Of a stretch of 40,442 bases of DNA, positions 1 to 21,386 are shown piece by piece; position 1 is the first letter of the stretch, and each line of letters opens with the position of its first letter. The translations under genes and the position numbers were made by a program. The stretch is from Candidatus Iainarchaeum sp. (GTDB lineage Archaea > Iainarchaeota > Iainarchaeia > Iainarchaeales > DTGL01). The stretch lies in the NCBI GenBank assembly GCA_043809265.1, contig JAZDDY010000120.1:1-40442 (forward strand). Direction: 5' to 3'. The notes below the pieces were generated by a model. The model was not told the origin of the DNA. It was given only the letters and a program-made list of their open reading frames with translations, and did not search any database.

Positions 1-659
1 CTTTTCACTGTTTTTTCCAGCATTGGGCTGCTTTTAAGGCCGCCCTTCAAAGGCCTCTGCAAATCCTGTATTTCGGGCGGCCCGTCAAACGAAACCTGGA
101 AGCTTTTAATCCTGTCCACAACCCCAAGATAGTCTTGCGGATTGCCGGTGCCGTTTGTCGACATTTTGATTTTCTCTATCTCGAGCTTCTCGACTGCATA
201 GTCCAGCGTTTCCTTGAATGCCCTGAAATCGCCTACCTGCTCCCCGGCCGAAAAAAAAGTCACCCACACCGGCTGTTTTTTTTCAGCAATGAAATCCACT
301 GCTTTTTTCAGCATTTCAATCGAAGCGTTTTTTCCTTTCCTGTTTTTCTCGGCGCCAAAGCAATAAGTGCACCCCATATTGCATTTGCTGGTGACCACGG
401 GGGCAAAATATTTGAAGCCCCCCCCTTCCGCAAAGGGCTTGGTTGAGTTTTTTGCAAGGAACGTTTCCCCGAAGGCGTCAAAGGCTTCGTGGTCCATTGC
501 AAAGGTTTTCCTCGACGTGCTGCAAAACAGCACAACCCGGCCGTTTTTCTCGAAAAGCCTGTGAAGGAAAGGCCTGTTTTTGGCTATTTCCCCCCCGATC
601 TCCGCCCTGCCGCGGAGCCGAAGGATTTCTCTGCTATTTTGGAAAATTTTGGCTTGCAT
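1..659 (-). CDS. Radical SAM protein (anSME/SPASM-type peptide maturase-like), 3' end beyond the window edge
   Basis: Not in the ORF track; translated by hand from ATG 659: MQAKIFQNSREIL...VVTSKCNMGCTYCFG...TFFSAGEQ...KMSTNGTG...QVSFDGPPEIQDLQRP, open to base 1. Has CxxxCxxC, a GGE-like SAGE, TNG and SxDG motifs. Starts 10 nt after the precursor stop. Confidence 0.9.
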   Translation of the reverse strand, partial: MQAKIFQNSREILRLRGRAEIGGEIAKNRPFLHRLFEKNGRVVLFCSTSRKTFAMDHEAFDAFGETFLAKNSTKPFAEGGGFKYFAPVVTSKCNMGCTYCFGAEKNRKGKNASIEMLKKAVDFIAEKKQPVWVTFFSAGEQVGDFRAFKETLDYAVEKLEIEKIKMSTNGTGNPQDYLGVVDRIKSFQVSFDGPPEIQDLQRPLKGGLKSSPMLEKTVK

Positions 660-669
660 AAATTTTCAC

Positions 670-1065
670 TCAGGTGCAATACTTTGCGGAGCAAACGCTT
701 ACGCAACTTGAGTGGCAGCTTGCATGGCATGAGCTGTGGCAGCTGCTGTGGCAGCTTGAGTGGCATGAGCTGTGGCAGCTTGAGTGGCATGAGCTGTGCG
801 AACTGTGCGAGCTGTGCGATGAGTGCGAGGCATGCGATGCGTGGTGGCCGTGCTTTGTCACCATCTGGCCGCTGTTCCAGCCAACGGAAAAATAGTTTGA
901 ATGTGCCGCGGCAACCGTCGGCAGCAGGTTCAGGATGGAAATCGAGCCAAGGAATGCGCCCAGCGAGATCATCCTGTGCTTTGAGATGCCGCCCCGCTCT
1001 TCTATCATGAAAGTTTTAAGGTTCTTTTTTATTTCCTTTACCAAATCCTTTTTTTGGCCAGCCAT
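670..1065 (-). CDS. hxsA: His-Xaa-Ser repeat precursor peptide (HxsA-like) with an added Cys-Xaa-Xaa-Xaa repeat tail
   Basis: 131 aa: basic N-terminus, hydrophobic stretch ending VAAA, then HGH-(HxS)6-(CHxS)7[11 protein letters not shown]. Surrounded by radical SAM and HxsD-like genes. Confidence 0.85.
700..850 (-). repeat. Coding tandem repeats (9-bp then 12-bp units) encoding HxS and CHxS
   Basis: + strand units gagtggcagctt / gagctgtggcag / gagtggcatgag vary mainly at synonymous positions. Confidence 0.9.
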
Positions 1066-1087: not shown

Positions 1088-1103
1088 TATTTAAATACTT
1101 TTC
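1088..1103 (-). promoter_or_regulatory. Putative archaeal BRE-TATA promoter of the precursor gene
   Basis: Minus strand GAAAAGTATTTAAATA ending about 23 nt upstream of ATG 1065; spacing fits a leaderless transcript. Confidence 0.6.
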
Positions 1104-3927: not shown

Positions 3928-4167
3928 TTAAAGGCCTGTGCCTTTCACTACTGCCAGAAGAAGATTGCAGAATTCCAGCGCCGTTTCCTTCAAAGGCTCG
4001 CTGCCGTGGGATTTCACAAGCAAGTGAAAATAGGATTTGTCTTCTTTTTCCAAAAATTCAACGCCCTGGAACCGCCTAGCGGCTTCCTCTACCGCTTCCT
4101 TGGAATAAAAATTTTTTGAAACAGTCAATTCCGCGGCATTGGCTTTTTTGTCAACTTTAATGCACAT
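3928..4167 (-). CDS. HxsD-like small protein
   Basis: 79 aa with FYSKEAVEEAA...F and ALEFCNLLL, resembling HxsD-like proteins; tightly coupled to the upstream gene. Confidence 0.65.
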   Translation of the reverse strand: MCIKVDKKANAAELTVSKNFYSKEAVEEAARRFQGVEFLEKEDKSYFHLLVKSHGSEPLKETALEFCNLLLAVVKGTGL

Positions 4168-4168
4168 T

Positions 4169-4672
4169 TCACTTGCACTCTTCCGGTTTTTTCAACCCCT
4201 TGGCCTTGTCAGGCGTCCAGGGCTTTGCAATGCCTTCAGGGTCCTGGACATACAAATCCTCGTCTTTCGGCATTTCAATGCTTTTCGCCTTTTCTTTGAG
4301 CAAATCGTCCCCGCATTCAGGGCAATACTCTTTTTCCTGTGCTTCCGCCGCCCCGATGTTTGTCGCAAGCGCCCTCTTGATTATGGCCTCCCTTATACTC
4401 TGGTTTCTTGCTGCCTGCACTGCAAAATTTGCGTAATTTATCAGCTCATCATGGAGCTCGAGCGCGATTTTTTCAATTTCGCCTTTGCCGGCTTTCTGGT
4501 TTTTCGGCCGGATGATGACTTTTATGTCGTTTTCAGGGTTGCCGTCCAGAAGGAAATAGGCCTTGTCAAGCAAAACATATGTTGCGGCATAAACAACTTC
4601 CAACGGAAAAACCTTGGGGTTTACAGAAACAATTGCCTTGCCTTCTTTCGGGAACAGTTCGATGTTTTTCAT
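4169..4672 (-). CDS. hxsD: His-Xaa-Ser system protein HxsD with C-terminal extension (CPEC)
   Basis: VNPKVFPLEVVYAATYVLLDKAY...LELHDELINY...IREAIIKRAL matches the HxsD pattern; first gene of the cluster. Confidence 0.7.
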   Translation of the reverse strand: MKNIELFPKEGKAIVSVNPKVFPLEVVYAATYVLLDKAYFLLDGNPENDIKVIIRPKNQKAGKGEIEKIALELHDELINYANFAVQAARNQSIREAIIKRALATNIGAAEAQEKEYCPECGDDLLKEKAKSIEMPKDEDLYVQDPEGIAKPWTPDKAKGLKKPEECK

Positions 4673-4838: not shown

Positions 4839-7800
4839 ATGGGACCACAGAATATACAACGCACTTCGCAGATTTTGCTACTCCTCGCTTTAGCCACTGC
4901 ATTCCTGCCCGCATACTGTTTTGCCCAACTCTGCACAGGCGGCCTTGGAATTACCGGCGCACAGGACTGCATCGGCACTAATACTGTCCCGTGCCATAAC
5001 TGCGATTCAAGCGACATGGATTTTGAAATAAGGGCTCCGGATGACACAAACACCACCGGCTGGGTGAACGAAACCTATTCAGGCGCTGTCGGCACATGCC
5101 CTTCTGCCTGTTCAGAGGAAACCTGGCTCAACAGTTACGGCTACACTTTCTGCCATGCCGAAGGCGCATACGATGCGCGCACAAGGTCTTATTCGCAGGA
5201 CGGCGGCACATATGACTGGGAAACAAGCGACTGGAATATTGGAGTATACACAGTAAACTGGGATGCCTTGCAGAACTGGTGCACCTGCAAGACAGGCTCA
5301 AGCGCAAACTGGTTTAGCACTGTTTCAGGCGGCTCGAACGGCCAGTGCTGCGGAGACGATGCAGCAAGCGACGACTTTTACTATTACACCGCCAGCCCGA
5401 CAACAGCTTCAACGCTTGACTGCACTCGCTGCTCCAACGGAACAAAAGCAGGCCCGACAACGCTTTACGGCAACGGCAAATGGTCCGGCACAGACAAAAC
5501 CACAGACACAAGCGGCACCTGCTATTCTGGAGACATCACCTGCAATGACACCACAGCCTCAAATGGCACCTCTGGAACTTATTACGGCAACGGTTATTGG
5601 TCAGGCGCAAGCCCTCTCACAGACACAAGCGGCACATGCTATTACGGCGACATCACCTGCTCCGACGGTTCTGCAGCAAACGGCACTTCAGGCACCTATT
5701 ACGGGAACGGCTATACAACCGCAAACTCCACAACAGACAAGAACGGCTTGTGCCGTTATGGCGACATCACCTGCTCTAACGGTTCGGCTGCAAACGGCGC
5801 TTCAAACTACATATATGGAAACGGCTCGGCTTTCGGCACAACCTGCCATTACGGCGACTGGACCTGCGCAAACGGCTCGGACTCCAACGGCGCCTCCTGC
5901 ACGCTTGCCTGCAGCGGCTTAGGCACAGCCTGCTGCACAAGCCAGAGCAATTACAGGGACACAATCACATGCGCCGAATCAGGGTGCGGTCAAACAGACC
6001 ATGAAAGGGACACAGGGCAATCATATTGCACAGCAACAGCCAGCGGCTGCACAGCCTACATCTGGGATTCTTTGGGTTCAAAATGCTGCGGCGACGACGG
6101 TTCAGGGGATTCGTTTTGCACCACAGGCGGCGGTTCCTGCATGAGCGGAACATGGAATGCCAATCACTGCCTTGATGGAGTAAAAAACTGCACTGAGGTC
6201 GGCATTGACACAGGCGGAACAGACTGCAATCTTGCAGCAACAGACATGGCAGCGCCGACCACGACCAGCGATGCAAACACAGCATGGCAAACATCAAACC
6301 AGACAATAACCCTGACATGCAGCGATGGTTCCGCGGTTGGCGCCACAGGATGCCAGGCAACATATTATTGCATTGACGATTATAACACCTGCCTGCCTTC
6401 GATTGCCGGGACAACAGTGCAAGTGAACTGCGCATCGAATGACGTGAATAGGAAGTTTGTAAGGTTTTATTCATTGGACTACAATTCGAATGTCGAGGCC
6501 GTGAAAAGCGCTTACATAAGGATTGACAAGCAAAAGCCGAGCACAGACAACAATATCAGCACTTCATGGGTTGATGCGAACGTGCACGTGAAATTTTCCT
6601 GCACTGATTACAACGGTTCCGGCTGCTATCTCACCCAGTACAGGCAGGACACCAACCCAAGCAAGGAACTTACCTGGGGGGCATGGGCAACTTACACCGG
6701 CGCAATAATTTTCGGCTCAGATGGAAATTACGCTGTCGATTTCAATTCGAAAGACGCTGTCGGTAACATTGAGAGCACAATCAGGATGCTGGTGAAAATC
6801 GACAAGGGCATTGCCTTGATTTGGCCGATGGAAACATATTCTTACTATTCAACCTATGACGGCAATGTGATAGTGCAGTTCACGCAGGACGGCAACCACC
6901 AATTGGATTTCAATTCAAGGGATGTAGCAGGAAACGTTGAGCAGGTCAGGACTGTCTGGGTCGCAATCGACAAATCCCCGCCGGTTACAGTGGACGACTT
7001 GAATGCCGCATGGCATACTGTGAACTTTTCCGTTACGCTGACCTGCCGCGATGCCGCAAAACAGTGCACTTTGACAAAGTACAGGATTGACTCTGATGCG
7101 ACAAGCAGCGTTTCCATCGGGGCATGGAATACTTATTCCACGCCGATTTCAATTTCAACCGACGGCAACTGGGCAATAGACTATAATTCAACAGACTATG
7201 TGGGGTGGATTGAAGCCACACACACGATTTATGCGCTCTTGGACAAAAACGCGCCCACGACCACGGATGATGCGAACACCGCCTGGCGCAACAGCAATCT
7301 GGCTGTAACCCTTACCGCAACCGATTCCACTTCAGGAGTGAAGGACACGCTTTTCTGCCAAACAACAGGCTCCTGCACTCCGAGCGTTTCAGGCAACAAT
7401 TTCACTATTTCCTGCCCTTCAGAGGCAGTCTGCACAGAATATCTCTATTACAGGTCGATCGACATTGCCGGAAACCAGGAATCGATAAAAAATACCGGTG
7501 AAATAAAAATCGACAAGCAGTCTCCAATCGTCAGCGATGACGCCAATTCGGCCTGCCAGTTCTCTGATCAGACAGTGAATATAGAGAGCTATGACTGGAA
7601 CGGTTCAGGCATTTTAGGAACATATTATTGCGTTGACGACTCCAATTCCTGCGAGCCGAGCACAAGCGGCTCTTCGGCAAGCGTCACCTGCGATGCCAAT
7701 TCAACCTGCCAGAAATACGTGCGCTACAATGCAGTCGATTTGGCAGGCAACGCGTCCAGCATGCACGCACCCAAACTCATCATTGACAAGGGGGCCTCGA

Positions 7801-10463
7801 CAACAACAGACGACGCCAACACGCAATGGCAGGGCTCAAACCAAACAATTTTGCTGACTCCGAGTGACGGCGGTGGCTGCGGTGTTTCGGCAACATATTA
7901 TTGCATCGACACCTCAAACACGTGCACTCCCACGACAAACGGAACTTCAGTGAGCGTCGACTGCAATGCGAATTCAGTCTGCCAGAAGTATGTAAGGTAT
8001 TATTCCATTGACTCCGGAGGCAATACGGAAACAGTGAAATCCGTATTGATAAAAATCGACAGGCAGCCCCCCACAACACAGCACGATGCAAACACAGCAT
8101 GGCAGAATTCCAATCAAATAGTGCATTTCACTGTAAACGACAGCTCTGGCTGCGGCGGCGATTCAGCATATTATTGCCTTGATGACGCAAACACCTGCAG
8201 CCCCAACATTTTGAGCTCTTCAGCTGACGTCAACTGCGACACCAATTATGTCTGCCAGAAATACGTGCGCTTCAAGGGCGTCGACTATGCGGGCAACCAG
8301 GATGTGGTAAGGGCGGTTCTTATCAGGATTGACAAGAACGCGCCAATGACAGCAAGCGATATCAACACCGCATGGCGGTCAACAGACCACGTGATTTACC
8401 TTACAAGGCACGATACCGGCTCAGGGATACAGAACACCTGGTTCTGCACAGATTCAGACAACACCTGCACTCCCAACATTGCCGACACTTCCTTCACTGT
8501 TTATGCAATTGACGACCAGATATCAAGGCCTTATGTCAGGTATTATTCGAAAGACAACGTGAACAATGCCGAAGGAATCCACTCTGAAAGGGTGAGCATG
8601 GACAGGCAAAAGCCCACAACAACAGACGACTCCAACACCGCCTGGCAAAAGACCGATGTGACAGTGCACCTGTCGCCAAGCGACGGCTCCGGCTGCGGAG
8701 TTTATGCAACCTATTATTGCGTTGACACAGCCGGCACCTGCACTCCCACAACAAGCGGGACTTCGGCAAACGTCACCTGTGATGTGAATTCAGTTTGCCA
8801 GAAATATGTAAGGTATTATTCGGTTGACAATGTCAACAACACCGAAACCGTAAAAACATCGAATCTTGTGAAAATCGACAAAAACGCCCCATACACCACA
8901 GACAATGCGCCGAGCGCCTGGCAGGCACAGGACGTGAACGTAACGCTTTCCCCGAGCGACGGCTCAGGCTCAGGGGTTGCCTCAACAAAATACTGCGTTG
9001 ACACAGCAGGCACCTGCACTCCAACCTCAACATATGCCGCGCCAGTAAGCGTTACCTGCGCTTCAGATTCTATCTGCCAGCAATACGTGAGGTATTATTC
9101 AACAGACAATGCCGGCAACGCCGAACCGATAAGGACTTCGGTTTTGGTGAAAATCGACAAGCAGGCTCCGACCACAACAGATAACGCATCCCCGGACTGG
9201 CAGAGCGCGGATGTTAATGTAACCCTCACCCCAAGCGACGGCTCAGGCTCAGGAATTGCTGCAACCTATTATTGCATTGACGATGCCAATTCCTGCACTC
9301 CGGACACTTCTGGCACAACCGCAAGCGTCACCTGCCCGGCGAATTCCGTTTGCCAGAAGTATGTGAGGTATCGCTCAATCGACAATGTCGGCAACCAGGA
9401 AATAACAAAAGCCGCGCTTGTCAAAATAGAAAAGAGAGAGCCGCACACAAGCACAAACATAACCCAGACATGGTATGCCGGAGACTTTAACGTGGAACTT
9501 ACCTGCACGCCTGCCTCGCAATATACGACCTGCGTGCAGACAACCTACAGGCTCAACAGCGGTTCCTGGACAGTGTATTCGGCGCCATTCACGGTCACGG
9601 CAAGCGGAATCAACACAATAGACTTCAATTCAAGGGATTCGGCCGGAAACATCGAGGACATAAATACGGATTATGTGAGAATCGACCGCACCGCACCGAA
9701 CACCACAAACGACGCCAACACTCTGTGGAAGAGCACAGACCTCCAGTTCACGCTTTCCCCGACGGATTCCCAGAGCGGCGTCTCCGCAACCTATTATTGC
9801 ATCGACACCGCAAACACATGCACTCCCACGACAAGCGGGACTTCTGTCAGCGTCACCTGCGATGTGAATCAGAACTGCCAGAAATACGTCCGCTACTATT
9901 CAAAGGACGCAATGGACAACACCGAAAGCGTGAAGAATGTTTTGGTGCGCATCGACAAAAGATACCCCTATACTTTGGCCGAAGCGCCTTCAGGCTGCGT
10001 GAACCTTGACTTCAATATATTGCTGACATGCATTGACGAAAGCGGTTCCGGAAGGTGCATGATACAATACAAGTGGGGCGAAGAGCAATGGCTCAGCTCA
10101 GGCACGCTGACCGCAACAGAGTCGTTCACCTGGTGGGATATGAACTGGGGGCGCAGGAAGAAAATCGTGTTCAACAACGCAGGCCAGAGCGCGAAAAACG
10201 ATTATTCCATATTATTGAGGCTGAATTCCGGCAACTTCCACTTCTTTGAAACACAATCAGACGGCAGGGATTTGCGCTTCATTGACGACGACAATTCAAC
10301 ACAGCTGGATTATTTCATTGACACTTTCAGCCGCTCTCAGCAGGACGCGGTAATATGGGTGAAAGTCCCGCAAATCAATGCAGGCTCAACAACAGACCAT
10401 ATCTGGATGTATTATTCGAATTCCAGGGCGGACGCAAACCAGAGCGCGAACTGGTACGGCTGA
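4839..10463 (+). CDS. Giant secreted surface protein (1874 aa): Cys-rich head, about 13 Ig-like repeats of about 90 aa, C-terminal DUF2341-like domain
   Basis: Signal peptide (ILLLLALATAFLPAYCFA); two CCGDD motifs; repeated IDKxxPTTTDDxN...YYCxD..TCTP...CQKYVRYYSxDxxGN units; terminal WW..W.RRKKI...DGRDLRF...IWVKVP...MYY. Confidence 0.88.
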   Translation: MGPQNIQRTSQILLLLALATAFLPAYCFAQLCTGGLGITGAQDCIGTNTVPCHNCDSSDMDFEIRAPDDTNTTGWVNETYSGAVGTCPSACSEETWLNSYGYTFCHAEGAYDARTRSYSQDGGTYDWETSDWNIGVYTVNWDALQNWCTCKTGSSANWFSTVSGGSNGQCCGDDAASDDFYYYTASPTTASTLDCTRCSNGTKAGPTTLYGNGKWSGTDKTTDTSGTCYSGDITCNDTTASNGTSGTYYGNGYWSGASPLTDTSGTCYYGDITCSDGSAANGTSGTYYGNGYTTANSTTDKNGLCRYGDITCSNGSAANGASNYIYGNGSAFGTTCHYGDWTCANGSDSNGASCTLACSGLGTACCTSQSNYRDTITCAESGCGQTDHERDTGQSYCTATASGCTAYIWDSLGSKCCGDDGSGDSFCTTGGGSCMSGTWNANHCLDGVKNCTEVGIDTGGTDCNLAATDMAAPTTTSDANTAWQTSNQTITLTCSDGSAVGATGCQATYYCIDDYNTCLPSIAGTTVQVNCASNDVNRKFVRFYSLDYNSNVEAVKSAYIRIDKQKPSTDNNISTSWVDANVHVKFSCTDYNGSGCYLTQYRQDTNPSKELTWGAWATYTGAIIFGSDGNYAVDFNSKDAVGNIESTIRMLVKIDKGIALIWPMETYSYYSTYDGNVIVQFTQDGNHQLDFNSRDVAGNVEQVRTVWVAIDKSPPVTVDDLNAAWHTVNFSVTLTCRDAAKQCTLTKYRIDSDATSSVSIGAWNTYSTPISISTDGNWAIDYNSTDYVGWIEATHTIYALLDKNAPTTTDDANTAWRNSNLAVTLTATDSTSGVKDTLFCQTTGSCTPSVSGNNFTISCPSEAVCTEYLYYRSIDIAGNQESIKNTGEIKIDKQSPIVSDDANSACQFSDQTVNIESYDWNGSGILGTYYCVDDSNSCEPSTSGSSASVTCDANSTCQKYVRYNAVDLAGNASSMHAPKLIIDKGASTTTDDANTQWQGSNQTILLTPSDGGGCGVSATYYCIDTSNTCTPTTNGTSVSVDCNANSVCQKYVRYYSIDSGGNTETVKSVLIKIDRQPPTTQHDANTAWQNSNQIVHFTVNDSSGCGGDSAYYCLDDANTCSPNILSSSADVNCDTNYVCQKYVRFKGVDYAGNQDVVRAVLIRIDKNAPMTASDINTAWRSTDHVIYLTRHDTGSGIQNTWFCTDSDNTCTPNIADTSFTVYAIDDQISRPYVRYYSKDNVNNAEGIHSERVSMDRQKPTTTDDSNTAWQKTDVTVHLSPSDGSGCGVYATYYCVDTAGTCTPTTSGTSANVTCDVNSVCQKYVRYYSVDNVNNTETVKTSNLVKIDKNAPYTTDNAPSAWQAQDVNVTLSPSDGSGSGVASTKYCVDTAGTCTPTSTYAAPVSVTCASDSICQQYVRYYSTDNAGNAEPIRTSVLVKIDKQAPTTTDNASPDWQSADVNVTLTPSDGSGSGIAATYYCIDDANSCTPDTSGTTASVTCPANSVCQKYVRYRSIDNVGNQEITKAALVKIEKREPHTSTNITQTWYAGDFNVELTCTPASQYTTCVQTTYRLNSGSWTVYSAPFTVTASGINTIDFNSRDSAGNIEDINTDYVRIDRTAPNTTNDANTLWKSTDLQFTLSPTDSQSGVSATYYCIDTANTCTPTTSGTSVSVTCDVNQNCQKYVRYYSKDAMDNTESVKNVLVRIDKRYPYTLAEAPSGCVNLDFNILLTCIDESGSGRCMIQYKWGEEQWLSSGTLTATESFTWWDMNWGRRKKIVFNNAGQSAKNDYSILLRLNSGNFHFFETQSDGRDLRFIDDDNSTQLDYFIDTFSRSQQDAVIWVKVPQINAGSTTDHIWMYYSNSRADANQSANWYG
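5460..5900 (+). repeat. Four coding repeats of about 39 aa (YYGNG...GTCYYGDITCSxGxAxNG)
   Basis: Visible in the translation and as recurring ggcaacgg / ggcgacatcacctgc in the DNA. Confidence 0.85.
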
Positions 10464-11214: not shown

Positions 11215-12474
11215 ATGCAAAAAAAGCATTTATTCCTTTCAACGCTGTTGCTGCTTTTTATTCTGGCGGGCGCCTATGCCGCAGTCCCGCGCCTATTGAC
11301 AGTGCAAGGCCGATTAAAGGAAGCAGGTTCCTCGGTCAGCGGCAATTACGACATGGTTTTTTACATTTACAATGTCGAATCAGGCGGAACGGCGCTATAC
11401 ACTGAAAGCCACACAGGCGCCAACACAGTGCCTGTGAACGCAGGCTTTTTCAGCACCATATTGGGCGACATCACTTCCCTGGACTTGGCTTTCAAAGAAC
11501 AATACTGGCTTGGCATAAAAGTGGGTTCGGATTCCGAAATGACTCCGCGCATCAAACTGACAAACTCCTCTTATGCTTTCGTGGCCCGCGACCTGAACGT
11601 GGGAGACAACTTGAACATTGACAGCGGCACTTTGTACGTTGACATTTCAGGAGACTTGGTCGGCATTGGCACAACCTCGCCAGGGCAAAAGCTCACGGTT
11701 TCAGGCAACGGCATCCGCATCACAGGCGTTGACACGCCAATGCTCGAATTTTATCCCAGCACAGGCGACCAATGGAGAGTGCAAAGCCAAAACGACAGCA
11801 CCTTCAGCGTATTCAACGTAACAGACGGCAGAACTTATCTGTTGATTGACGGCAGCGGGAATGTGGGCCTGAACAAAACGCCTTCCTACAGGCTTGACGT
11901 GAACGGCACAGTGAACGCGACCAGTTTTTACCAAAACGGCTCGCCCCTTGTCGGCAGTTATTGGACTAAAACAGGAAATAACATTTACTACAATGACGGA
12001 AACGTGGGGATTGGGACGGCGAGCCCGGGAGCGAAGTTGGATGTGAACGGCGTTTTAAATATACAAAACCAGCCGATTATCAGTGGTCAAATGGGCACTG
12101 CGATGACAAATCCGGCTGCAGTGCAAAAGCTTGCATTTAACGAGTTTTGGGTCTCGCGCGGCATTACCTATGACTCTGACACACGCAGATTTACCGTGCC
12201 TGTTGCTGGAGTTTACCGCATCACGCTTAACCCATTTTTTGCAACCGGAGCCGGCGCGGCTCGAGTTCTTGTTGGAATCAATACTGACGCGCCCACTGCT
12301 ACTAACGCTCGTGGGCATGCTTATCGTGAATCCGCGACTTATGACACGGGCAGTATTGACAGTGTTGTTTCGCTAAATGCGAACGATTATATCGTATTCT
12401 ACCTATTATCGGGAACTCTATACAACCAAGCGGGCGACTATTTTAACCAATTTTCAATCGTAAAAATTGCATGA
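11215..12474 (+). CDS. Secreted fibre/adhesin-like protein with GNVGIGT shaft repeats and a C1q/TNF-like C-terminal tip
   Basis: Signal peptide; N-domain TVQGRL...YWLGI.V..D.EM.PR; LVGIGTTSP / GNVGLN / GNVGIGTASP repeats; tip FTVPVAGVYRI...VVSLNANDYIVF. Confidence 0.78.
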   Translation: MQKKHLFLSTLLLLFILAGAYAAVPRLLTVQGRLKEAGSSVSGNYDMVFYIYNVESGGTALYTESHTGANTVPVNAGFFSTILGDITSLDLAFKEQYWLGIKVGSDSEMTPRIKLTNSSYAFVARDLNVGDNLNIDSGTLYVDISGDLVGIGTTSPGQKLTVSGNGIRITGVDTPMLEFYPSTGDQWRVQSQNDSTFSVFNVTDGRTYLLIDGSGNVGLNKTPSYRLDVNGTVNATSFYQNGSPLVGSYWTKTGNNIYYNDGNVGIGTASPGAKLDVNGVLNIQNQPIISGQMGTAMTNPAAVQKLAFNEFWVSRGITYDSDTRRFTVPVAGVYRITLNPFFATGAGAARVLVGINTDAPTATNARGHAYRESATYDTGSIDSVVSLNANDYIVFYLLSGTLYNQAGDYFNQFSIVKIA

Positions 12475-15273: not shown

Positions 15274-15347
15274 GAAAGCAAAGGCCTTGCGGCCTTGAAA
15301 GGCTTGGAAGGCCTGGAAGGCTTTGACCGTTTCGGTTCGTGGAAGAA

Positions 15348-18300
15348 ATGCCTGAAAAAAGAATGGCAATGGCGATATTCATAGCACTGCTTTTAGGCGC
15401 GCCACTGGCGTTCTCGGCACACACAAGCCAAAACTATTCAATCACAAACATTGTAATCGAGCCAAGCGATGAAGGCGCTTCAGAAAACTACAGGATTTAT
15501 GACGCAGGCGAAGAACCCATCGGTTCAGGGGAAGGCACAAGCGTAGGCTATTCGCTCTGGATTGGCTTTCCTGCAACTGTCGGCATTCCGAGAGTGCCAG
15601 GGGCGCTGAGCACTGCTGTTGATTCCAATACCCAAATCACTGTTTCATGGGATGCAAACGGCAACCAGTCAGGCGTAACCTACCAATTGCAGGAAACAAG
15701 TCCTGTGTCCCAAAGCCTTTATTCAGGCGCAAACACGCAATACGTTCACTCAAGTTTGAGTGCAGGCCAGCAGTACTGTTATAAGATCAGGGCTTATGCC
15801 GGAGTTTACAGCGTGTATTCCGCTGAAAAGTGCGCTTCCACAATGCCGAGCGAACCGGTCGTGAGTTCAAGCCACACGCAGAATGCATGGGACACCAATT
15901 CCGTTTTGCAGTTCACTGCAACCAGCAGCGCCCACCACTTTTATTATGCTTGGAACCAGGCGGCAGGCACGGCTGTTTCGGCTGGCGACACGCAGTGGGA
16001 CGGCAATGCGATAGTGAAAACCGCAACAAGCGACGGCAACTGGTATTTCCATGTAAGGAGCGCGAATGCCGACAACAATCTGAATGACGGCGGCACAGTG
16101 CACTACGGCCCCTACAATATCGACTCGAATGTGCCTTACACTTATGATGACGCGAATTCCTATTGGCAGACAACCAATGTGCATGTAATCTTGGGCCGAA
16201 CCGATAATGCCAGCGGAATCACAAACACTTATTATTGCATGGGTTCTGATAATTCCTGCACGCCGTCAACAACAGGCACAACCGCGGATGTGACCTGCAA
16301 CACAACCTGCCAGACTTATTTGCGCTATTATTCCGTTGACCTTGCAGGCAACCAGGAAAGCGTCAGAAGCAGGCTTATAAAAATCGACAAGGAAAATCCT
16401 TCAACACCGACAGTAACGGATGAAGGCTCGATTTCCTCGGATTTCTCCCTTACATTCACTTATACAACTTTGGACAATAATGGTTCAGGAATAAGCGATT
16501 TCTATCTGGAATTGCACAGCGGCTCGACCTCAGGCCCGCTTGTATATGGGGGCTGGACAGGCGACAATGACGGTTCGTATGCCTATTTGGGGGCGCTTGA
16601 AGCGCATACTTATTATGCGAAGGGAAAAGTAAAGGATGCGCTTAACCATGAAAGTTCTTTCTCTGCCTGGACAGACGCCGTTTATGTGAACGCAACCTCG
16701 CACCCCTCGAGCGCAAATTATGCCTTGGACATGTATACTGTGGTGCCAAGCGGCTCAACAGACAGCGACAATTATTCCATTGCGGATTTAGTGATAGGCC
16801 AGGCGGCTGTGTCAATGTCTTCTGACAATTATACAGCCGAAACAGGCTTTGGCGGCGGCTTTATTGAAAATTCCGCTCCGACCATAACCTATAATTCCCC
16901 TAACTCCGGCTATTATGGTTCTGGCACGATTTCAATAGATTTCAATGTGAAGGAGGCTGAAAACGACAGGCCTTACCTTACAATCGCTTATTCCACAACC
17001 AAAGGCGCTTTCCAGGTAACGCTTTTGGATGATGTCAACCTTAACGATTATGCCGACATCTCCAACCTGGACTGCGATAGCAATGCCTGGAGTTCAAGCG
17101 TAAACTGCGTTTATTCATGGGATGCGTCGAGCGTGCAGGACGGGAATTATTATGTAGACTTTAATGCGCATGATACTGCCGGGGCTGCGCACAGCACTTC
17201 TTCAAGCGCGTCCATAAAGATCGACAAGACCGCACCAGTGACTTCAAGCGATTATAATGGCGACTGGTCCGGCGCTGACCTTAACATCACGCTTTCCTGC
17301 AATGACGGCTCAGGCTCAGGATGCTCGCTAACGCAATACAGGCTTGACTCAAACCCGTCAAGCACTGTTTCCTTCGGCTCCTGGCTGCCCTATTCTGAGA
17401 AGTTTGCAGTGAGCGGGGACGGCAATTGGGTGATAGATTTCAACAGCGTCGACCTTTTAGGCAATGCTGAAACCACAAACAGGCAATATATCCTCATAAA
17501 CAAGGCTTTTTCCTCGATGGAATTGCAGATTCCGGCCGGCTTTGAGATAGAAATAAAGGAGGACCTGAACAAAACGCTCTGGTACAAGTGCACTGATTAT
17601 GCCGGAAATGTCGAGACAGCGCAATACATTTACATCTGCCTTGACAAGAACCCGCCAACAACAACCGACGACATCAACAGCGACTGGAGAAGCGCTGACG
17701 CCATCGTAACGCTTACAGCTGCCGACCCGGGCTCAGGCGTGCAGGCGACTTATCACTGCACCGACGACTCCAATTCATGCAATCCGCTGTCCGGAACCAT
17801 TGGGGCGACATTCAGCGTTTCCTGCGACGCCGATTCGGTCTGCCAGAAATATGTTCGCTATCTCTCGGTGGACAATGCAGGCAGCAGCGAGGCTGCGCAC
17901 GGCGAGCTTGTGAGGATCGACAACCAGAAGCCGGGCACGAGCGCTGTTTTCACTGACGGCTGGCTTGGCGACACGAATGTGGCGTTTTCCTGCTCCGACG
18001 GAAGCGGTTCAGGCTGCAAAAAACTGAAATACAGGGTGGATTCCGGCGGCTGGCAGGAGGCAACAATTTCAGGCAATGATGTCAATGTTTTGTTCAGCAC
18101 CGACGGCAACCATTTGGTCGAATATTATTCATTGGATAACGTGGACAACAACGAAGCCATAAAGCAGGGCTGGCTTGCAATCGACAAGAACCCGCCTTCT
18201 GTCACAATAACCGATCCGAGCACGGATGATATGGAGAAAGGCACGCCGACAATTTCCTTCAATATCGGCAGGCTCGGAGGCTCCAGCCTTGACCTTTCCT

Positions 18301-19538
18301 CAATTGTCGTTGATTTCAACGGAACTGCAAGCGACGACTTCAATGCATTGGCGCACTGCACTGTAAACAACGGCGATTATAATTGCTCTTACACCGAACT
18401 GAATTTCCCGGAAACGGACTATAATCTGAGCGTTTATGCAAAGGATGCGGCCAACAATGCAAGAAAGGCCTCAAGGGTTTTCACCCTTAAGGCAATAATC
18501 GCTGTAAGGTACATTACCCCCTCAGGCGGATTTGTGAAAGGCGTTTCCTCAATCCACTTTGAGGTAAAGAACACGATGCTGAACGATGTTTACGCCAAGC
18601 TCTTTATTTCAGGCTGGTTCGGACGGTTCGATTCAAACATAAGCCCGGTAATGCATTTGGACCAGTACAGTGAAATCCAGGGCTTGTCATGTGCGAGCAC
18701 GAACTGGTGGGATTGGACTGCATGCACTTACAGCTGGAATTCTGCCGGAGTTTCAGACGGCAATTATTTCATCGACCTTAACTTCTATAACGCCAGCGGC
18801 GGCAACACCGCAGGACATTCCCTCATGCCATTCCTTGTCGACAATACGCCTCCTGTTGCCAATGTCGGCGGCGTTTCGTCCACGCCTGTGTATTTCAATA
18901 GGGTTTATTTGGGCTGCAGCGATGCGGGTTCAGGCTGCATGCAAACCAAATGGTATTATTTCAGTTCCTCGCAAACATGCTCTTCCTCGAAGAGCAGTTA
19001 TGACACTAACACAAATGCGGGCTATATTGAAATTTCGACAGAACATTCGGATTACATCTGCCTCTGGGTTGAAGACAAGGCTGGCTTCAATGCAAGGGCG
19101 GTTTCTGCACAGCTTCAAATTGAACCTGGAGTGTATGTTATTAGCAGCATTTCGAGCGAATCAATGAGCATTGCGACCCAGGACTTAAACAACGAGTGCC
19201 GCATGTACCTGGACCAGAATATAACCATTGAATGCGCCTTCAAGAGCACGATAAAAATAAGCGAATATGAGAATGACCTTAACAGGGTATGGCAGGAAAG
19301 CCCGGAACTGGTTGTTTCGCCGCCGAAAACCATCAGGGTTTTGGTCCAAAGCGAGATTGAATCCTTCTATAACAAGGATTATTTCCTGAAATTCGAGAGC
19401 GAACAGCGCACAATTACAAGCCTCGGCAACGAAAATGACTATCAGACAGTTGTTGTCAGGAGAAGGGTTATGCCTTTGCTTACCACCGAAGGCCAGCTTG
19501 AAGTCGGCACGCTCACAATACTGATAAGGCAGAAATAG
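15348..19538 (+). CDS. Giant secreted surface protein (about 1396 aa) with FN3-like and Ig-like repeats
   Basis: Signal peptide (AIFIALLLGAPLAFSA); FN3-like ITVSWDANGN...YCYKIRAY; same Ig-like repeat family as 4839-10463; no C-terminal TM. Start could also be 15339 or 15363. Confidence 0.88.
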   Translation: MPEKRMAMAIFIALLLGAPLAFSAHTSQNYSITNIVIEPSDEGASENYRIYDAGEEPIGSGEGTSVGYSLWIGFPATVGIPRVPGALSTAVDSNTQITVSWDANGNQSGVTYQLQETSPVSQSLYSGANTQYVHSSLSAGQQYCYKIRAYAGVYSVYSAEKCASTMPSEPVVSSSHTQNAWDTNSVLQFTATSSAHHFYYAWNQAAGTAVSAGDTQWDGNAIVKTATSDGNWYFHVRSANADNNLNDGGTVHYGPYNIDSNVPYTYDDANSYWQTTNVHVILGRTDNASGITNTYYCMGSDNSCTPSTTGTTADVTCNTTCQTYLRYYSVDLAGNQESVRSRLIKIDKENPSTPTVTDEGSISSDFSLTFTYTTLDNNGSGISDFYLELHSGSTSGPLVYGGWTGDNDGSYAYLGALEAHTYYAKGKVKDALNHESSFSAWTDAVYVNATSHPSSANYALDMYTVVPSGSTDSDNYSIADLVIGQAAVSMSSDNYTAETGFGGGFIENSAPTITYNSPNSGYYGSGTISIDFNVKEAENDRPYLTIAYSTTKGAFQVTLLDDVNLNDYADISNLDCDSNAWSSSVNCVYSWDASSVQDGNYYVDFNAHDTAGAAHSTSSSASIKIDKTAPVTSSDYNGDWSGADLNITLSCNDGSGSGCSLTQYRLDSNPSSTVSFGSWLPYSEKFAVSGDGNWVIDFNSVDLLGNAETTNRQYILINKAFSSMELQIPAGFEIEIKEDLNKTLWYKCTDYAGNVETAQYIYICLDKNPPTTTDDINSDWRSADAIVTLTAADPGSGVQATYHCTDDSNSCNPLSGTIGATFSVSCDADSVCQKYVRYLSVDNAGSSEAAHGELVRIDNQKPGTSAVFTDGWLGDTNVAFSCSDGSGSGCKKLKYRVDSGGWQEATISGNDVNVLFSTDGNHLVEYYSLDNVDNNEAIKQGWLAIDKNPPSVTITDPSTDDMEKGTPTISFNIGRLGGSSLDLSSIVVDFNGTASDDFNALAHCTVNNGDYNCSYTELNFPETDYNLSVYAKDAANNARKASRVFTLKAIIAVRYITPSGGFVKGVSSIHFEVKNTMLNDVYAKLFISGWFGRFDSNISPVMHLDQYSEIQGLSCASTNWWDWTACTYSWNSAGVSDGNYFIDLNFYNASGGNTAGHSLMPFLVDNTPPVANVGGVSSTPVYFNRVYLGCSDAGSGCMQTKWYYFSSSQTCSSSKSSYDTNTNAGYIEISTEHSDYICLWVEDKAGFNARAVSAQLQIEPGVYVISSISSESMSIATQDLNNECRMYLDQNITIECAFKSTIKISEYENDLNRVWQESPELVVSPPKTIRVLVQSEIESFYNKDYFLKFESEQRTITSLGNENDYQTVVVRRRVMPLLTTEGQLEVGTLTILIRQK

Positions 19539-19581: not shown

Positions 19582-20442
19582 TTAAACCCCTGGCGCGAGT
19601 ATCGATGTCGCCAGGAGGTATGCGGTCACGGATGTGCTCAATAGTATCAGGCAGTGCTTGAGGCCTGCTACAAGGCTGTTTTCCGAGATTTTCCCTATCA
19701 TCGGGCCTGCGAAAATGCTTTGCACTATCAGCAGGTTAAGGAAGTGGGCGGAAAAATCCATTTTCGGCTTGCTTTCGGAAGAACCGGCCTGCATTGATGA
19801 GATATCGCCGGAAAGCAGGCTGGCCGCATTGATTGCAGGCTGGTTTGCGATGAGCGGCACAAAGTAGACCTGGATTGCGATTATTATCATCACAAAGACA
19901 TAGAACATCATGTATGCGTTGAAAAGCGTGGACATTGTGCGGCTTTTCCTCTGGTTTTTCAGCCTTTCTATTTTTTCCACGTATTTTGCGCTTGTGGTGA
20001 AAACCTTCATGAAATTTCCCCCTGTGCGCAGGGTCTGGTTTATCACCGTGATTATTTTCCTTATAAGCTGGGAGCGGACGTCCTTGAAGGTGATTTGCAT
20101 TGCTTTTTCGAAAGGGATGCCGAGCTTCACTTTTGCGGCAAGCCTTTTCACGTAAACGCTCAAAGGCCCGTAATCGTTCCTTGCGGTTATCTGGAGGGCG
20201 TCGCTGATGTTCACGCCTGCCTGCAATAAGTCCCTGAGGTCGTCAAGCAAAACCCTGAAATTGTCCTCAAGGCCTTTTATTGCCCTGTTTTTGAGGTAAT
20301 AGGCCAGGACAAGCGGGCCTGCGAAGGCGATAATCGGCACAATGATAAGGCTTGTGCCGGCCAGCAGGAAAAACATGGCCAGGCTGGCGCCCGCGCCCAA
20401 AAGCGCGAATTTTGCGTAATAAAATAAAACCTCGTTTTCCAT
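19582..20442 (-). CDS. Type IV pilus/T2SS-F membrane platform protein (TadC/FlaJ-like)
   Basis: Multiple TM helices; DLLQAGVNISDAL, YGPLS, KLGIPFEKA, IGKISENSLVAGLKH. Confidence 0.9.
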   Translation of the reverse strand: MENEVLFYYAKFALLGAGASLAMFFLLAGTSLIIVPIIAFAGPLVLAYYLKNRAIKGLEDNFRVLLDDLRDLLQAGVNISDALQITARNDYGPLSVYVKRLAAKVKLGIPFEKAMQITFKDVRSQLIRKIITVINQTLRTGGNFMKVFTTSAKYVEKIERLKNQRKSRTMSTLFNAYMMFYVFVMIIIAIQVYFVPLIANQPAINAASLLSGDISSMQAGSSESKPKMDFSAHFLNLLIVQSIFAGPMIGKISENSLVAGLKHCLILLSTSVTAYLLATSILAPGV

Positions 20443-20480
20443 CTTTCCACTCTCTTTTTTCCTATTTTTTCAAAGCCCGC

Positions 20481-21356
20481 TTATTCCGGGGACATAATCA
20501 TCATTACTGCAATGAACAATATGTTTGCCAGCGGTATTACAAGCCACACACCGTAAGTCACCAGTTGTTCTGCCGAAAGCCCGAAAATGCCGGATTCGGT
20601 TGCAAACATCCCGAGGAGCATGACGGCAAAGAACAAAAACAACGGCGCTGCGATCAGGATGATGCTGTAAATTTCGCCAAGCGTTTCCGCCCTTTCAGCG
20701 CTCCTTTCCAATTGCAGCATGTACTCGAAGTATGCGTCGTCAGCGCGCTTTGACATGAATTCCTTGAGGTCGCCGCCGCTCCTCAATGTCGTGTTCAGCT
20801 CTTTCAGGAAGGTCTGCAGCTTCACCGACGGCGTCAGTTCTATTTCTTTTGCCACTGCCTTGCTGAAGGACAGGCCGAGCTGGTCCATGAAGCGCTGTAT
20901 TTTCATGCATTCTTTTTCAAGCCAGGGATAATCCGGATTGCCGGCAATGGACTGGAACATGTATTGGGGCGGCGCGCCGCCTTCGCTTATGGTGGACATT
21001 GTCAGGATTGCAAGCGGCAGGTTTGCCGCGATGATTTTGTTTTTTTTGGACAGTTCCATCGAAGGCCAGACAAAAGAGAATGCGGCGACTCCCGCCCCGG
21101 CGATAAAAGGCGCCAGGAACACAATGGGGCTTGCAAAGGTGCCTGAAACGAACACCGCTATGGCAACAACAAAGCCGAGTATTGCAGTGATGGCTGCAAG
21201 GGCGAGCCAGTAGGCGAAATAATGGCCTGTGCTGTAAGGGTAATCGACAAGCGCCAGCTTTTTTTTGAGCGAGTCAACGTCTATGTTTTTTGTGGCCTTG
21301 TAAAAGGTTTTTTCGGCCAGCCCGAAGACAAGCGCTTCAAGCCTTTCCTTCAGCAT
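20481..21356 (-). CDS. Type IV pilus/T2SS-F membrane platform protein (TadB/FlaJ-like)
   Basis: TM helices; NLPLAILTMSTISEGG, TPSVKLQTFL...TTLRSGGDLKEF. Confidence 0.9.
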   Translation of the reverse strand: MLKERLEALVFGLAEKTFYKATKNIDVDSLKKKLALVDYPYSTGHYFAYWLALAAITAILGFVVAIAVFVSGTFASPIVFLAPFIAGAGVAAFSFVWPSMELSKKNKIIAANLPLAILTMSTISEGGAPPQYMFQSIAGNPDYPWLEKECMKIQRFMDQLGLSFSKAVAKEIELTPSVKLQTFLKELNTTLRSGGDLKEFMSKRADDAYFEYMLQLERSAERAETLGEIYSIILIAAPLFLFFAVMLLGMFATESGIFGLSAEQLVTYGVWLVIPLANILFIAVMMIMSPE

Positions 21357-21386
21357 TCCTGCCCCTCCTCCGGCCTTCCTTGGCGG

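Follow-up and report, generated by a model that had tools for sequence, protein, structure and literature searches.

A Cys-His-Xaa-Ser repeat precursor in an archaeal variant of the Hxs radical SAM system

What is made from a small archaeal gene whose product switches from His-Xaa-Ser (HxS) triplets to a Cys-His-Xaa-Ser (CHxS) tetrad repeat, and which enzymes would act on it? The gene lies at positions 670–1065 on the minus strand of contig JAZDDY010000120.1 (C120), the whole of which (40,442 nt) was analysed and is called the window here. The contig belongs to assembly GCA_043809265.1 of Candidatus Iainarchaeum sp., a genome of 1.23 Mb that is 86% complete (G000). An earlier note, made from the DNA letters alone, had read the gene as an Hxs-type precursor with two modification registers, and had proposed that the second, cysteine-bearing register explains an extra SPASM-type radical S-adenosylmethionine (SAM) enzyme immediately downstream. 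We find the gene product to be a real, selected and unusual substrate within a novel variant of the known Hxs system. The best explanation, to which we give a probability of roughly 60%, is that it is the precursor of an archaeal multi-enzyme Hxs radical SAM variant, doubly matured and exported, which presents a polyvalent His/Cys/Ser array outside the cell. Sequence, family membership, synteny and co-occurrence were observed directly; chemistry, export and function we infer.

The precursor and its repeat

Alternative reading frames are likewise open across the repeat, and the frame of the 131-residue open reading frame (ORF) at 670–1065 is fixed by homologues that match its leader. The first 75 residues were matched by seven proteins (E = 1.6e-27 to 8.1e-21), and a precursor match was present in 23 of the 215 genomes of the phylum surveyed for homologues. 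Against the HxsA3 model NF038309, the precursor scored 24.6 bits (E = 1.6e-5, profile positions 4–76 of 81), below the cut-off of 65, and 146 of 150 family members scanned matched HxsA3 at E ≤ 1e-3. This weak match and its recurrence among the relatives bear out the Hxs-type identity first proposed. Judged by its sequence, the precursor is related to HxsA3 but lies outside the curated family, and it belongs to a large HxsA3-like family in which a basic leader and a hydrophobic helix precede a variable core. Its relatives are labelled Candidatus Diapherotrites or Iainarchaeum, and one Diapherotrites-named species is placed in the phylum Candidatus Iainarchaeota. These labels agree with the DPANN-type host named at the outset, the Iainarchaeota/Diapherotrites lineage being one that we take to be DPANN.

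A script re-count of the core reproduced exactly the parse of the earlier note, HGH-HAS-HAS-(HSS)4-(CHSS)5 and onwards, with 13 HxS units and 10 cysteines, nine of them in i+4 register. Six HxS triplets occupy residues 75–92 (790–843), followed by seven CHxS tetrads at residues 93–120 (706–789) and a C-terminal tail of residues 121–131 plus stop (670–705), all on the minus strand. The HxS units start at residues 75, 78, 81, 84, 87, 90, 94, 98, 102, 106, 110, 114 and 118. The cysteines stand at 93, 97, 101, 105, 109, 113, 117, 121, 125 and 130, with eight gaps of four residues and a final one of five, and there is no Asp or Glu in residues 75–131. Tandem Repeats Finder reported periods of 12, 24 (92% matches) and 36 bases over 703–798, the 12-base tetrad units lying within 24- and 36-base higher-order repeats, and periods of 9 and 18 bases over 791–843. 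These periods across 703–843 exclude a chance pattern and identify a DNA tandem array.

Comparing the seven CHxS units codon by codon (84 comparisons, 21 pairs × 4 codons) gave 49 identical codons, 29 synonymous differences and 6 non-synonymous ones, all 6 of which trace to the single Ala in CHAS. The corresponding counts for the six HxS triplets were 21, 16 and 8. The Ser codons of the array alternate TCA with AGC or AGT. The DNA repeats thus differ mainly at synonymous sites, as the first reading of the letters had stated. This excess, together with the recurrence of SCHSS-type units in relatives with distant leaders, argues for selection on the peptide.

Upstream of the core, the precursor comprises a leader, a hydrophobic segment and a junction. 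The basic leader (residues 1–31; 973–1065, minus strand; nine Lys or Arg, four Asp or Glu) is conserved in three alignments (A1, A2 and A3), and P10, E23, G25, I27 and K29 are nearly invariant among close and distant relatives. The hydrophobic segment (residues 32–54; 904–972, minus strand), a putative membrane helix or signal-like stretch, ends in PTVAAA. Its top Kyte–Doolittle 19-residue window covers residues 33–51 (mean 1.7), and G36, P49, V51 and A53 are invariant in nine close relatives, with the ending pattern PxVxAA. The junction (residues 55–74; 844–903, minus strand) follows the pattern HSNxFxVxWNxGxxTxxHxHH, of which H55, N57, W63, N64, G66, H72 and H74 are invariant in alignment A1. 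We refer to the close family of the precursor, which has this conserved junction, as f1-type, and to short Cys-free relatives ending in SY as f11-type; the junction is conserved among the close family only and is missing in the f11-type relatives. The part after AAA has 77 residues, among them 28 Ser, 16 His and 10 Cys. Read by the archaeal promoter consensus, the TATA-box-like motif TTTAAATA (1088–1095, minus strand) is centred ~26 bases upstream of the precursor ATG, a position that suggests a promoter of its own and a leaderless mRNA.

The CHSS array is best read as a tandem expansion of a 12-base unit that runs from the last HSS triplet through the first Cys of the tail, because an array-free relative of the same genus (tail CGAICAIDFCS) has the same tail spacing, Cx3Cx4Cx, as the window precursor. 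As this unit joins HSS and Cys, each added copy would carry both an HxS site and a Cys. A further genome of the same genus has 11 CHxS units with the same TCA/AGC codon alternation, and a precursor from another genus mixes HSSC and HSS units and contains 16 Cys. A profile search of 1.84 billion representatives yielded 544 relatives at E ≤ 1e-3. Among the 151 listed relatives shorter than 260 residues, HxS cores lack Cys in 30 and contain it in 34, and a further 22 have Cys-rich cores with few HxS units; two or more CHxS units occur in 3 of the 151. A single SCHSS unit is present in P0001 and P0109, two further genomes also have CHxS-containing cores, and in three of five CHxS/SCHSS carriers the leader is only 26–37% identical to that of the window. 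In the sequences searched, the CHxS unit recurs widely but rarely. The earlier note had said that common CHxS tails in described HxsA families would refute it, and the recurrence of such cores within the family counts against it in part. No CHxS-type core was found in searches of the literature on His-Xaa-Ser/HxsA-HxsB systems. A tree of the HxsC adjoining the precursor, drawn to see whether CHxS arrays have a single origin (12 rows, excluding the split HxsC of locus L040, and L041 and L043, which have no HxsC on the contig), left eight of nine inner branches open. In one relative, P0009 (2,131 residues), 12 stretches matched the leader profile separately (E = 6e-29), which may point to a polyprotein or a series of leader-like modules.

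The downstream enzyme and the cysteine tails

The downstream gene, here called B', starts 10 bases after the precursor and encodes a SPASM-type radical SAM maturase. The window holds its N-terminal 219 residues (3–659, minus strand), and the gene, cut by the contig start, continues at 1–1209 of contig C34 of the same genome. The reverse complement of the window's first 14 bases forms the head of C34, the reading frames agree, and a 611-residue orthologue aligns with both the window fragment (residues 1–219) and the C34 fragment (residues 216–611). We conclude that a gene of ~617 residues is split by the contig break.

A candidate identification of B' as HxsB was rejected: its fragment scored 44.9 bits on HxsB (cut-off 370), and true HxsB proteins of 425–444 bits are encoded elsewhere in the genome, one of them at 8250–9623 of C34, ~9 kb from the precursor (443.9 bits on TIGR03978, passing the cut-off of 370). 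The same fragment scored 52.8 bits on a nif11-type maturase and 49.6 on PapB. The 611-residue orthologue reached 110.6 on PapB, 71.9 on SCIFF, 72.3 on QhpD and 66.8 on HxsB, and full-length orthologues ranged over 72–120 on PapB, 51–121 on the nif11-type family, 28–100 on SCIFF and 48–86 on HxsB; scores on the cyclophane-forming maturase AmcB were 43–82 bits. A profile of B' aligns with the SPASM archetype, the anaerobic sulfatase-maturating enzyme anSME, over residues 89–420, and has seven conserved Cys beyond the CX3CX2C motif. A C-terminal extension of ~180 residues, with a conserved CxxC...C motif, matched no known family. On these profile matches, B' is an extra PapB/SCIFF-like SPASM peptide maturase, distinct from HxsB. 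The earlier note was thus right that the enzyme is additional to HxsB, HxsC and HxsD, a point settled only from DNA outside the window; the gene that it gave as 1–659 is at 3–659 and is cut by the contig start. A scan of one genome per species for B' relatives outside the lineage gave eight loci, all from this archaeal group except one short contig labelled Woesearchaeota.

The thioether-forming SPASM maturases (PapB, SCIFF/CteB-type and QhpD) are, alongside nif11-like ones, among the best named families for B', and like them it has the full SPASM Cys pattern. Unlike them, it scores 50–120 bits against cut-offs of 340–453, carries the 180-residue C-terminal extension and adjoins an array without an Asp/Glu acceptor. 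Nor does the locus qualify as a ranthipeptide (PapB) system, since both the fragment and the orthologues fall below the NF047865 cut-off of 340 and the core has no Asp or Glu.

We then examined B' against the Cys content of the precursors in 49 loci from species genomes and metagenomes, with genes classed against the window's own proteins. Nine of the 37 f1-type precursor ORFs are open at a contig end and were set aside from the Cys counts. Duplicates were merged (L078 = L077; L076 = L033; L079 identical to L037), and G203 (L044; leader score 18 bits), which fell below the threshold of the later tables, was left out. The unfused Cys-tailed f1-type precursors (22 ORFs) represent 19 distinct loci, of which 15 have B' within 2 kb downstream; L040, whose ORF overlaps the precursor, was counted as positive by hand reading. 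At two more, the contig ends in short radical SAM fragments with B' as their best match (24–32 bits), one was not assessable, and the last, L081, is without B'. By contrast, B' was found in none of the three Cys-free f1-type loci, all of which keep the junction. In two of these (L092 and L095), the next downstream gene is on the opposite strand. It was likewise found in neither of the two distinct loci with fused precursors, one of which has a CHxS array, and in none of 12 short Cys-free f11-type loci. Precursors at 13 of the 15 B'-positive loci have 1–4 Cys and no tetrads, and one of the three CHxS-array loci with context (L037) lacks B'. Taken together, these counts indicate that B' tracks Cys-bearing tails generally and not tetrads. 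The suggested co-occurrence of Cys tail and enzyme therefore stands for Cys tails at large (15/19 versus 0/3 Cys-free) and falls for tetrad arrays specifically, and with it falls the proposal that the extra enzyme explains the tetrad register.

Three locus types deserve description. One metagenome locus (L094:2-1144) has two tandem precursors, with tails ACDFSGPLTC and GCDLTGPLTC, followed by one B'. The fused precursors (L037:7265–8728 and L075:575–2068; 487 and 497 residues) join the leader, the HxS repeats and SCPF, a short Cys junction, to a ~330-residue domain, and a 611-residue protein on the opposite strand stands in place of B'. The fused domain had no Pfam match and no similarity to the 329-residue neighbour protein described below, and in the protein atlas it matched unnamed clusters only (0.91–0.92, low recognition). 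In f11-type loci the gene order is A24, HxsD, HxsB-like, precursor, radical SAM; the one f11-type HxsB-like gene scanned scored 324.5 bits, below the cut-off of 370.

Cys-His tetrads also end proteins with other N-terminal parts. When the core alone was used in a word search, 15 proteins among 3,203 candidates reached E ≤ 10, and the 13 sequences inspected have unrelated N-terminal parts and C-terminal (CHxx)n tails, often ending in GSRGWR or ARGRR (P0158–P0169). One of ten scanned weakly matched the model for Cys-Xaa-Xaa-Xaa (CXXX) repeat radical SAM targets (20.1 bits, cut-off 50). A (CHxx)n relative in a 240-kb viral contig (L111:4959-10587) stands directly after a SPASM radical SAM gene, with two more radical SAM-like genes (26–48 bits) ~1.8 kb downstream. 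Because the viral SPASM enzyme has no specific similarity to B', this locus is an analogy only; a search of a phage collection gave no match to P0168. Such (CHxx)n arrays next to radical SAM genes agree with the prior statement that Cys-repeat peptides form a separate radical-SAM-associated class, and by analogy they support the idea that Cys-His tetrads may by themselves be a register targeted by radical SAM enzymes.

A proposed doubly matured, exported peptide and its alternatives

Hxs was reportedly first described by Haft and Basu in 2011. Our comparison is with HXS of E. coli, the HxsABCD anti-phage system of Pseudomonadota (Li et al., Nat Commun 2026; PMC13128918). According to the Discussion of that paper, the in silico prediction of Hxs systems is over ten years old; they gained a function only in 2026. 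HxsB, HxsC and HxsD are needed for N-terminal processing of E. coli HxsA and for a +8 Da change on SHRSS, the sole published Hxs chemistry. The His-Ser crosslinks and Cys thioethers of the earlier note are assumptions. HxsA is processed and exported, and in its mature form blocks phage DNA entry from the periplasm (PMC13128918). All four genes are present in >99.8% of the published systems and the order D-B-C-A in 99.6%, and 99.7% of systems lie in Pseudomonadota (PMC13128918).

The archaeal system resembles E. coli HXS in having an HxS-repeat substrate, HxsB (SPASM) and HxsC-like radical SAM enzymes with a small HxsD homologue, a putative N-terminal export signal and predicted processing. E. 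coli HxsA has 214 residues, five HxS repeats and a peptidoglycan-binding domain (PMC13128918), whereas the window precursor is shorter, richer in HxS units and bears Cys. The archaeal system also has up to nine radical SAM genes, and the D-B-C-A order is absent from the window locus, HxsB sitting in a second unit on the opposite strand. What is new relative to E. coli HXS is therefore the host, the gene number, the gene order, the substrate and two extra components, the PapB-like B' and an A24 peptidase, while the enzyme families and, as proposed, the export logic are shared.

In the reading that we favour, HxsB and HxsC-type enzymes, with HxsD, would alter the His/Ser units in the cytoplasm, and B' would act on the Cys residues, most likely by forming thioether links. 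The hydrophobic segment would insert in an N-in/C-out orientation. The leader would be removed by the cluster A24 peptidase, or by a signal peptidase at AAA/HS, leaving the 77-residue His/Cys/Ser-rich part on the cell exterior, where it would serve, either free or still anchored, as a polyvalent binder. Its target may be incoming viral DNA, if E. coli HXS is a guide, or else metal.

Export is supported by the hydrophobic maximum at residues 33–51, the net basic N-terminus and the precedent of E. coli HxsA. A candidate leader peptidase is encoded at 7156–8226 of C34 (locus L065, minus strand), where a 356-residue A24 (prepilin-peptidase-like) membrane protein scored 34 bits on Peptidase_A24 (cut-off 26.5). 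Cluster A24 genes were present in 20 of the 49 loci searched (L065, L032, L033, L034, L037, L039, L045, L047–L054, L084, L086, L092, L093 and L095), as a neighbour of HxsB in the close family and immediately ahead of HxsD in 9 of 12 short-precursor loci; at the remaining three, the sequence ends close to the cluster and the region upstream of HxsD lies outside view. In an alignment of 12 members, neither of the two catalytic Asp motifs varies. Another A24 gene, separate from that of the cluster, lies on contig C93 of the same genome. As in class III (prepilin-like) signal peptides cut by A24, the precursor has a basic N-terminus, a near-invariant Gly and a helix of ~22 residues, and an A24 paralogue with both Asp motifs is in the cluster. 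Unlike in that class, the window leader spans 25–35 residues, charged residues follow G25, and the A24 protein has a 250-residue extension. The basic leader, the Gly, the helix and the synteny together suggest that the cluster A24 protein is a dedicated leader peptidase.

Several points weigh against the favoured reading. The residues after G25 (ISKHRM) are charged, unlike typical prepilin cleavage sites, so that the link between A24 and the precursor is one of synteny only. PapB-type enzymes need an Asp/Glu acceptor (Cys-Xn-Asp/Glu), which the CHSS array does not offer, and since all family scores of B' are far below the curated cut-offs, its chemistry is not readable from homology. Locus L081, whose precursor has 10 Cys, has a different radical SAM gene downstream instead of B'. 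L037, from the same genus as the window, has an eleven-unit CHxS array fused to the 330-residue domain and no B' nearby. The loci are kin, so the co-occurrence counts amount to few independent events, the Cys-free cases standing for some two losses. Window and C34 are joined by 14 bases and gene continuity, and the unit number of the array comes from the assembly.

A possible alternative, to which we assign clearly lower odds, is that the Cys residues are metal ligands together with the neighbouring His (CH every four residues), or form disulfides after export, and that B' acts elsewhere, on the aromatic junction or on the HxS units. The composition of the exported part fits this, His/Cys/Ser-rich sequences being typical of metal-binding peptides. 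The junction and B' are also both f1-type-specific and both absent from f11-type relatives, and B' scores on cyclophane-forming maturases next to an array with no acceptor. Yet the three Cys-free f1-type precursors keep the junction and have no B', B' is translationally close to Cys-tailed precursors, as the 10-base gap in the window illustrates, and (CHxx)n tails elsewhere adjoin SPASM radical SAM genes.

Quite unlikely is the version of the earlier note, in which the tetrads constitute a distinct second programme of modification, with the downstream enzyme recruited for just that purpose. B' is indeed additional to HxsB, HxsC and HxsD, and families of CXXX-repeat targets (TIGR04117) with their maturase (TIGR04115) exist, in which, as here, Cys recurs every fourth residue and the array adjoins a SPASM radical SAM gene. 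However, at E ≤ 0.01 the precursor matches no CXXX family, the TIGR04115 scores are 26.1 bits for B' and 30–76 for its orthologues (cut-off 350), and the free-standing (CHxx)n-tailed proteins have unrelated N-terminal parts. No paper on CXXX-repeat peptides with radical SAM enzymes was found. Most B'-positive loci are free of tetrads, the L037 array is without B', and the only enzyme unique to the window locus, C3, lies upstream of the precursor (1106–1963). The least probable alternative, that the array has no functional meaning and arose in a low-complexity gene by neutral slippage of repeats or as an artefact of assembly, would suit the ease with which 12-base-unit arrays expand, the differing unit numbers of relatives (7 versus 11) and a count known from assembly, but it is opposed by the mostly synonymous differences between units, by the alternation of TCA and AGC-class Ser codons, which argues against recent slippage or assembly collapse, and by the recurrence of arrays in separate assemblies and in distant-leader relatives.

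Beyond the favoured reading, a joint picture can be drawn, which we regard as doubtful. HxsA3-like peptides would be prepilin-like surface molecules from which a dedicated A24 peptidase removes the leader, the helix staying as an anchor or filament core. The outer array would carry two interleaved radical SAM chemistries, altered His/Ser and Cys cross-links, merged in the window into one CHSS unit, and would serve as a viral barrier at the envelope, comparable to periplasmic E. coli HXS, or as a metal-binding surface. Were this so, an organism with a 1.2-Mb genome would spend up to 17 radical SAM genes on such an array.

The present locus places the system in a very different, reduced, DPANN-type archaeal setting. 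Every four residues of its substrate's array contain an HxS site as well as a Cys. As each modification would appear seven or more times, the window precursor should be a good test object for the roles of HxsB, HxsC and B'. The locus also raises the question of whether radical-SAM-matured peptides provide envelope-level antiviral defence in archaea. A metagenome survey reports no biosynthetic clusters in ten Iainarchaeota genomes (PMC9902471), which indicates that such clusters are easily missed. Among the papers listed for Iainarchaeota and radical SAM enzymes, none deals with the present system.

Other genes of the locus and its surroundings

The minus-strand gene order in the window is HxsD, HxsD-like, C1, C2, C3, precursor, B'. 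The HxsD homologue (167 residues; 4169–4672) scored 36.4 bits on TIGR03976 (cut-off 50), and the 79-residue HxsD-like protein (3928–4167) passed NF038315 (41.4 bits, cut-off 41). C1 (2896–3846) is an HxsC4-like radical SAM protein with 134.7 bits on NF038332 (cut-off 500) and 97.2 on TIGR03977. C2 (2041–2886), which is HxsC-like, scored 208 bits on TIGR03977 (cut-off 267.9) in a nearly full-length match (profile positions 31–287 of 292) and is conserved directly upstream of the precursor across the family. C3 (1106–1963) is a divergent HxsC-like radical SAM protein with a CX3CX2C motif (91.9 bits on HxsC); its ORF extends without a stop as far as 2137, and 1963 is a guessed start. HxsC is the best family for both C2 and C3, each below the cut-off of 267.9, and the Pfam Radical_SAM domain was found in all four window enzymes (C1, C2, C3 and B'). 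C3 had no orthologue in the 215 phylum genomes (best match 81.6 bits, 32% identity). It was considered as a tetrad-specific enzyme, with no orthologue in those genomes for comparison.

The window HxsC and HxsD thus differ from the curated families in scoring below their cut-offs. The NCBIfam models HxsA3 (NF038309), HxsA4, HxsC4 (NF038332) and HxsD-like (NF038315) show that Hxs variants have already been catalogued. The precursor aligns with HxsA3 over its leader and helix, C1 scores best on HxsC4, and the 79-residue protein passes, whereas the precursor and C1 stay below the respective cut-offs of 65 and 500. Among the papers listed for His-Xaa-Ser/HxsA-HxsB systems, those that concern Hxs were the HXS paper, its preprint, a 2022 JBC paper and two genome reports that contain the terms. 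No paper on HxsA3-type systems was found among them, and the HxsA3-type models therefore count as annotation only.

On C34, the first gene after B' encodes a 329-residue protein that matches no family and is anchored by an N-terminal hydrophobic stretch (L065:1263-2252, plus strand), which is conserved directly after B' in at least seven other loci (78–96 bits). It is followed by an HxsC-like gene, a glycosyltransferase, an ACGX/SbtM-like SPASM radical SAM gene (L065:4829-5966), an HxsC4-like gene, the A24 peptidase, HxsB and a further HxsC-like gene. A leader search in the genome matched two precursors only, on C120 and C128, and nothing on C34, which indicates that the HxsB unit of C34 has no precursor of its own. 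The paralogous locus on C128 encodes a 122-residue precursor with 14 HxS units and a single Cys, and has a downstream SPASM enzyme (432 residues) and an HxsB (425 bits) of its own. Two radical SAM genes appear to be frameshifted, the ACGX/SbtM-like gene of C34, which is intact as 367 residues in L037, and the HxsC adjoining the C128 precursor (L040:9092-9962); they may be pseudogenes or assembly errors. Counting one of these, the joined C120 and C34 have as many as nine radical SAM genes. At E ≤ 1e-10, the genome gave 11 HxsC-like matches and several relatives 8–11. The two Hxs loci together have up to 17 radical SAM genes, a large number for a 1.2-Mb genome.

Beyond the Hxs genes, the plus strand of the window encodes two Cys-/Thr-rich surface-type proteins, one of 1,874 residues with DUF2341 (4839–10463) and one of 1,399 residues with Big_3_3 (15339–19538), and a C1q-domain protein that adjoins the Hxs locus (11215–12474). 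On the minus strand (19582–23648), ~15 kb from the precursor, two T2SSF-type genes and one T2SSE-type ATPase gene make up an assembly set of the type IV pilus or archaellum-like kind.

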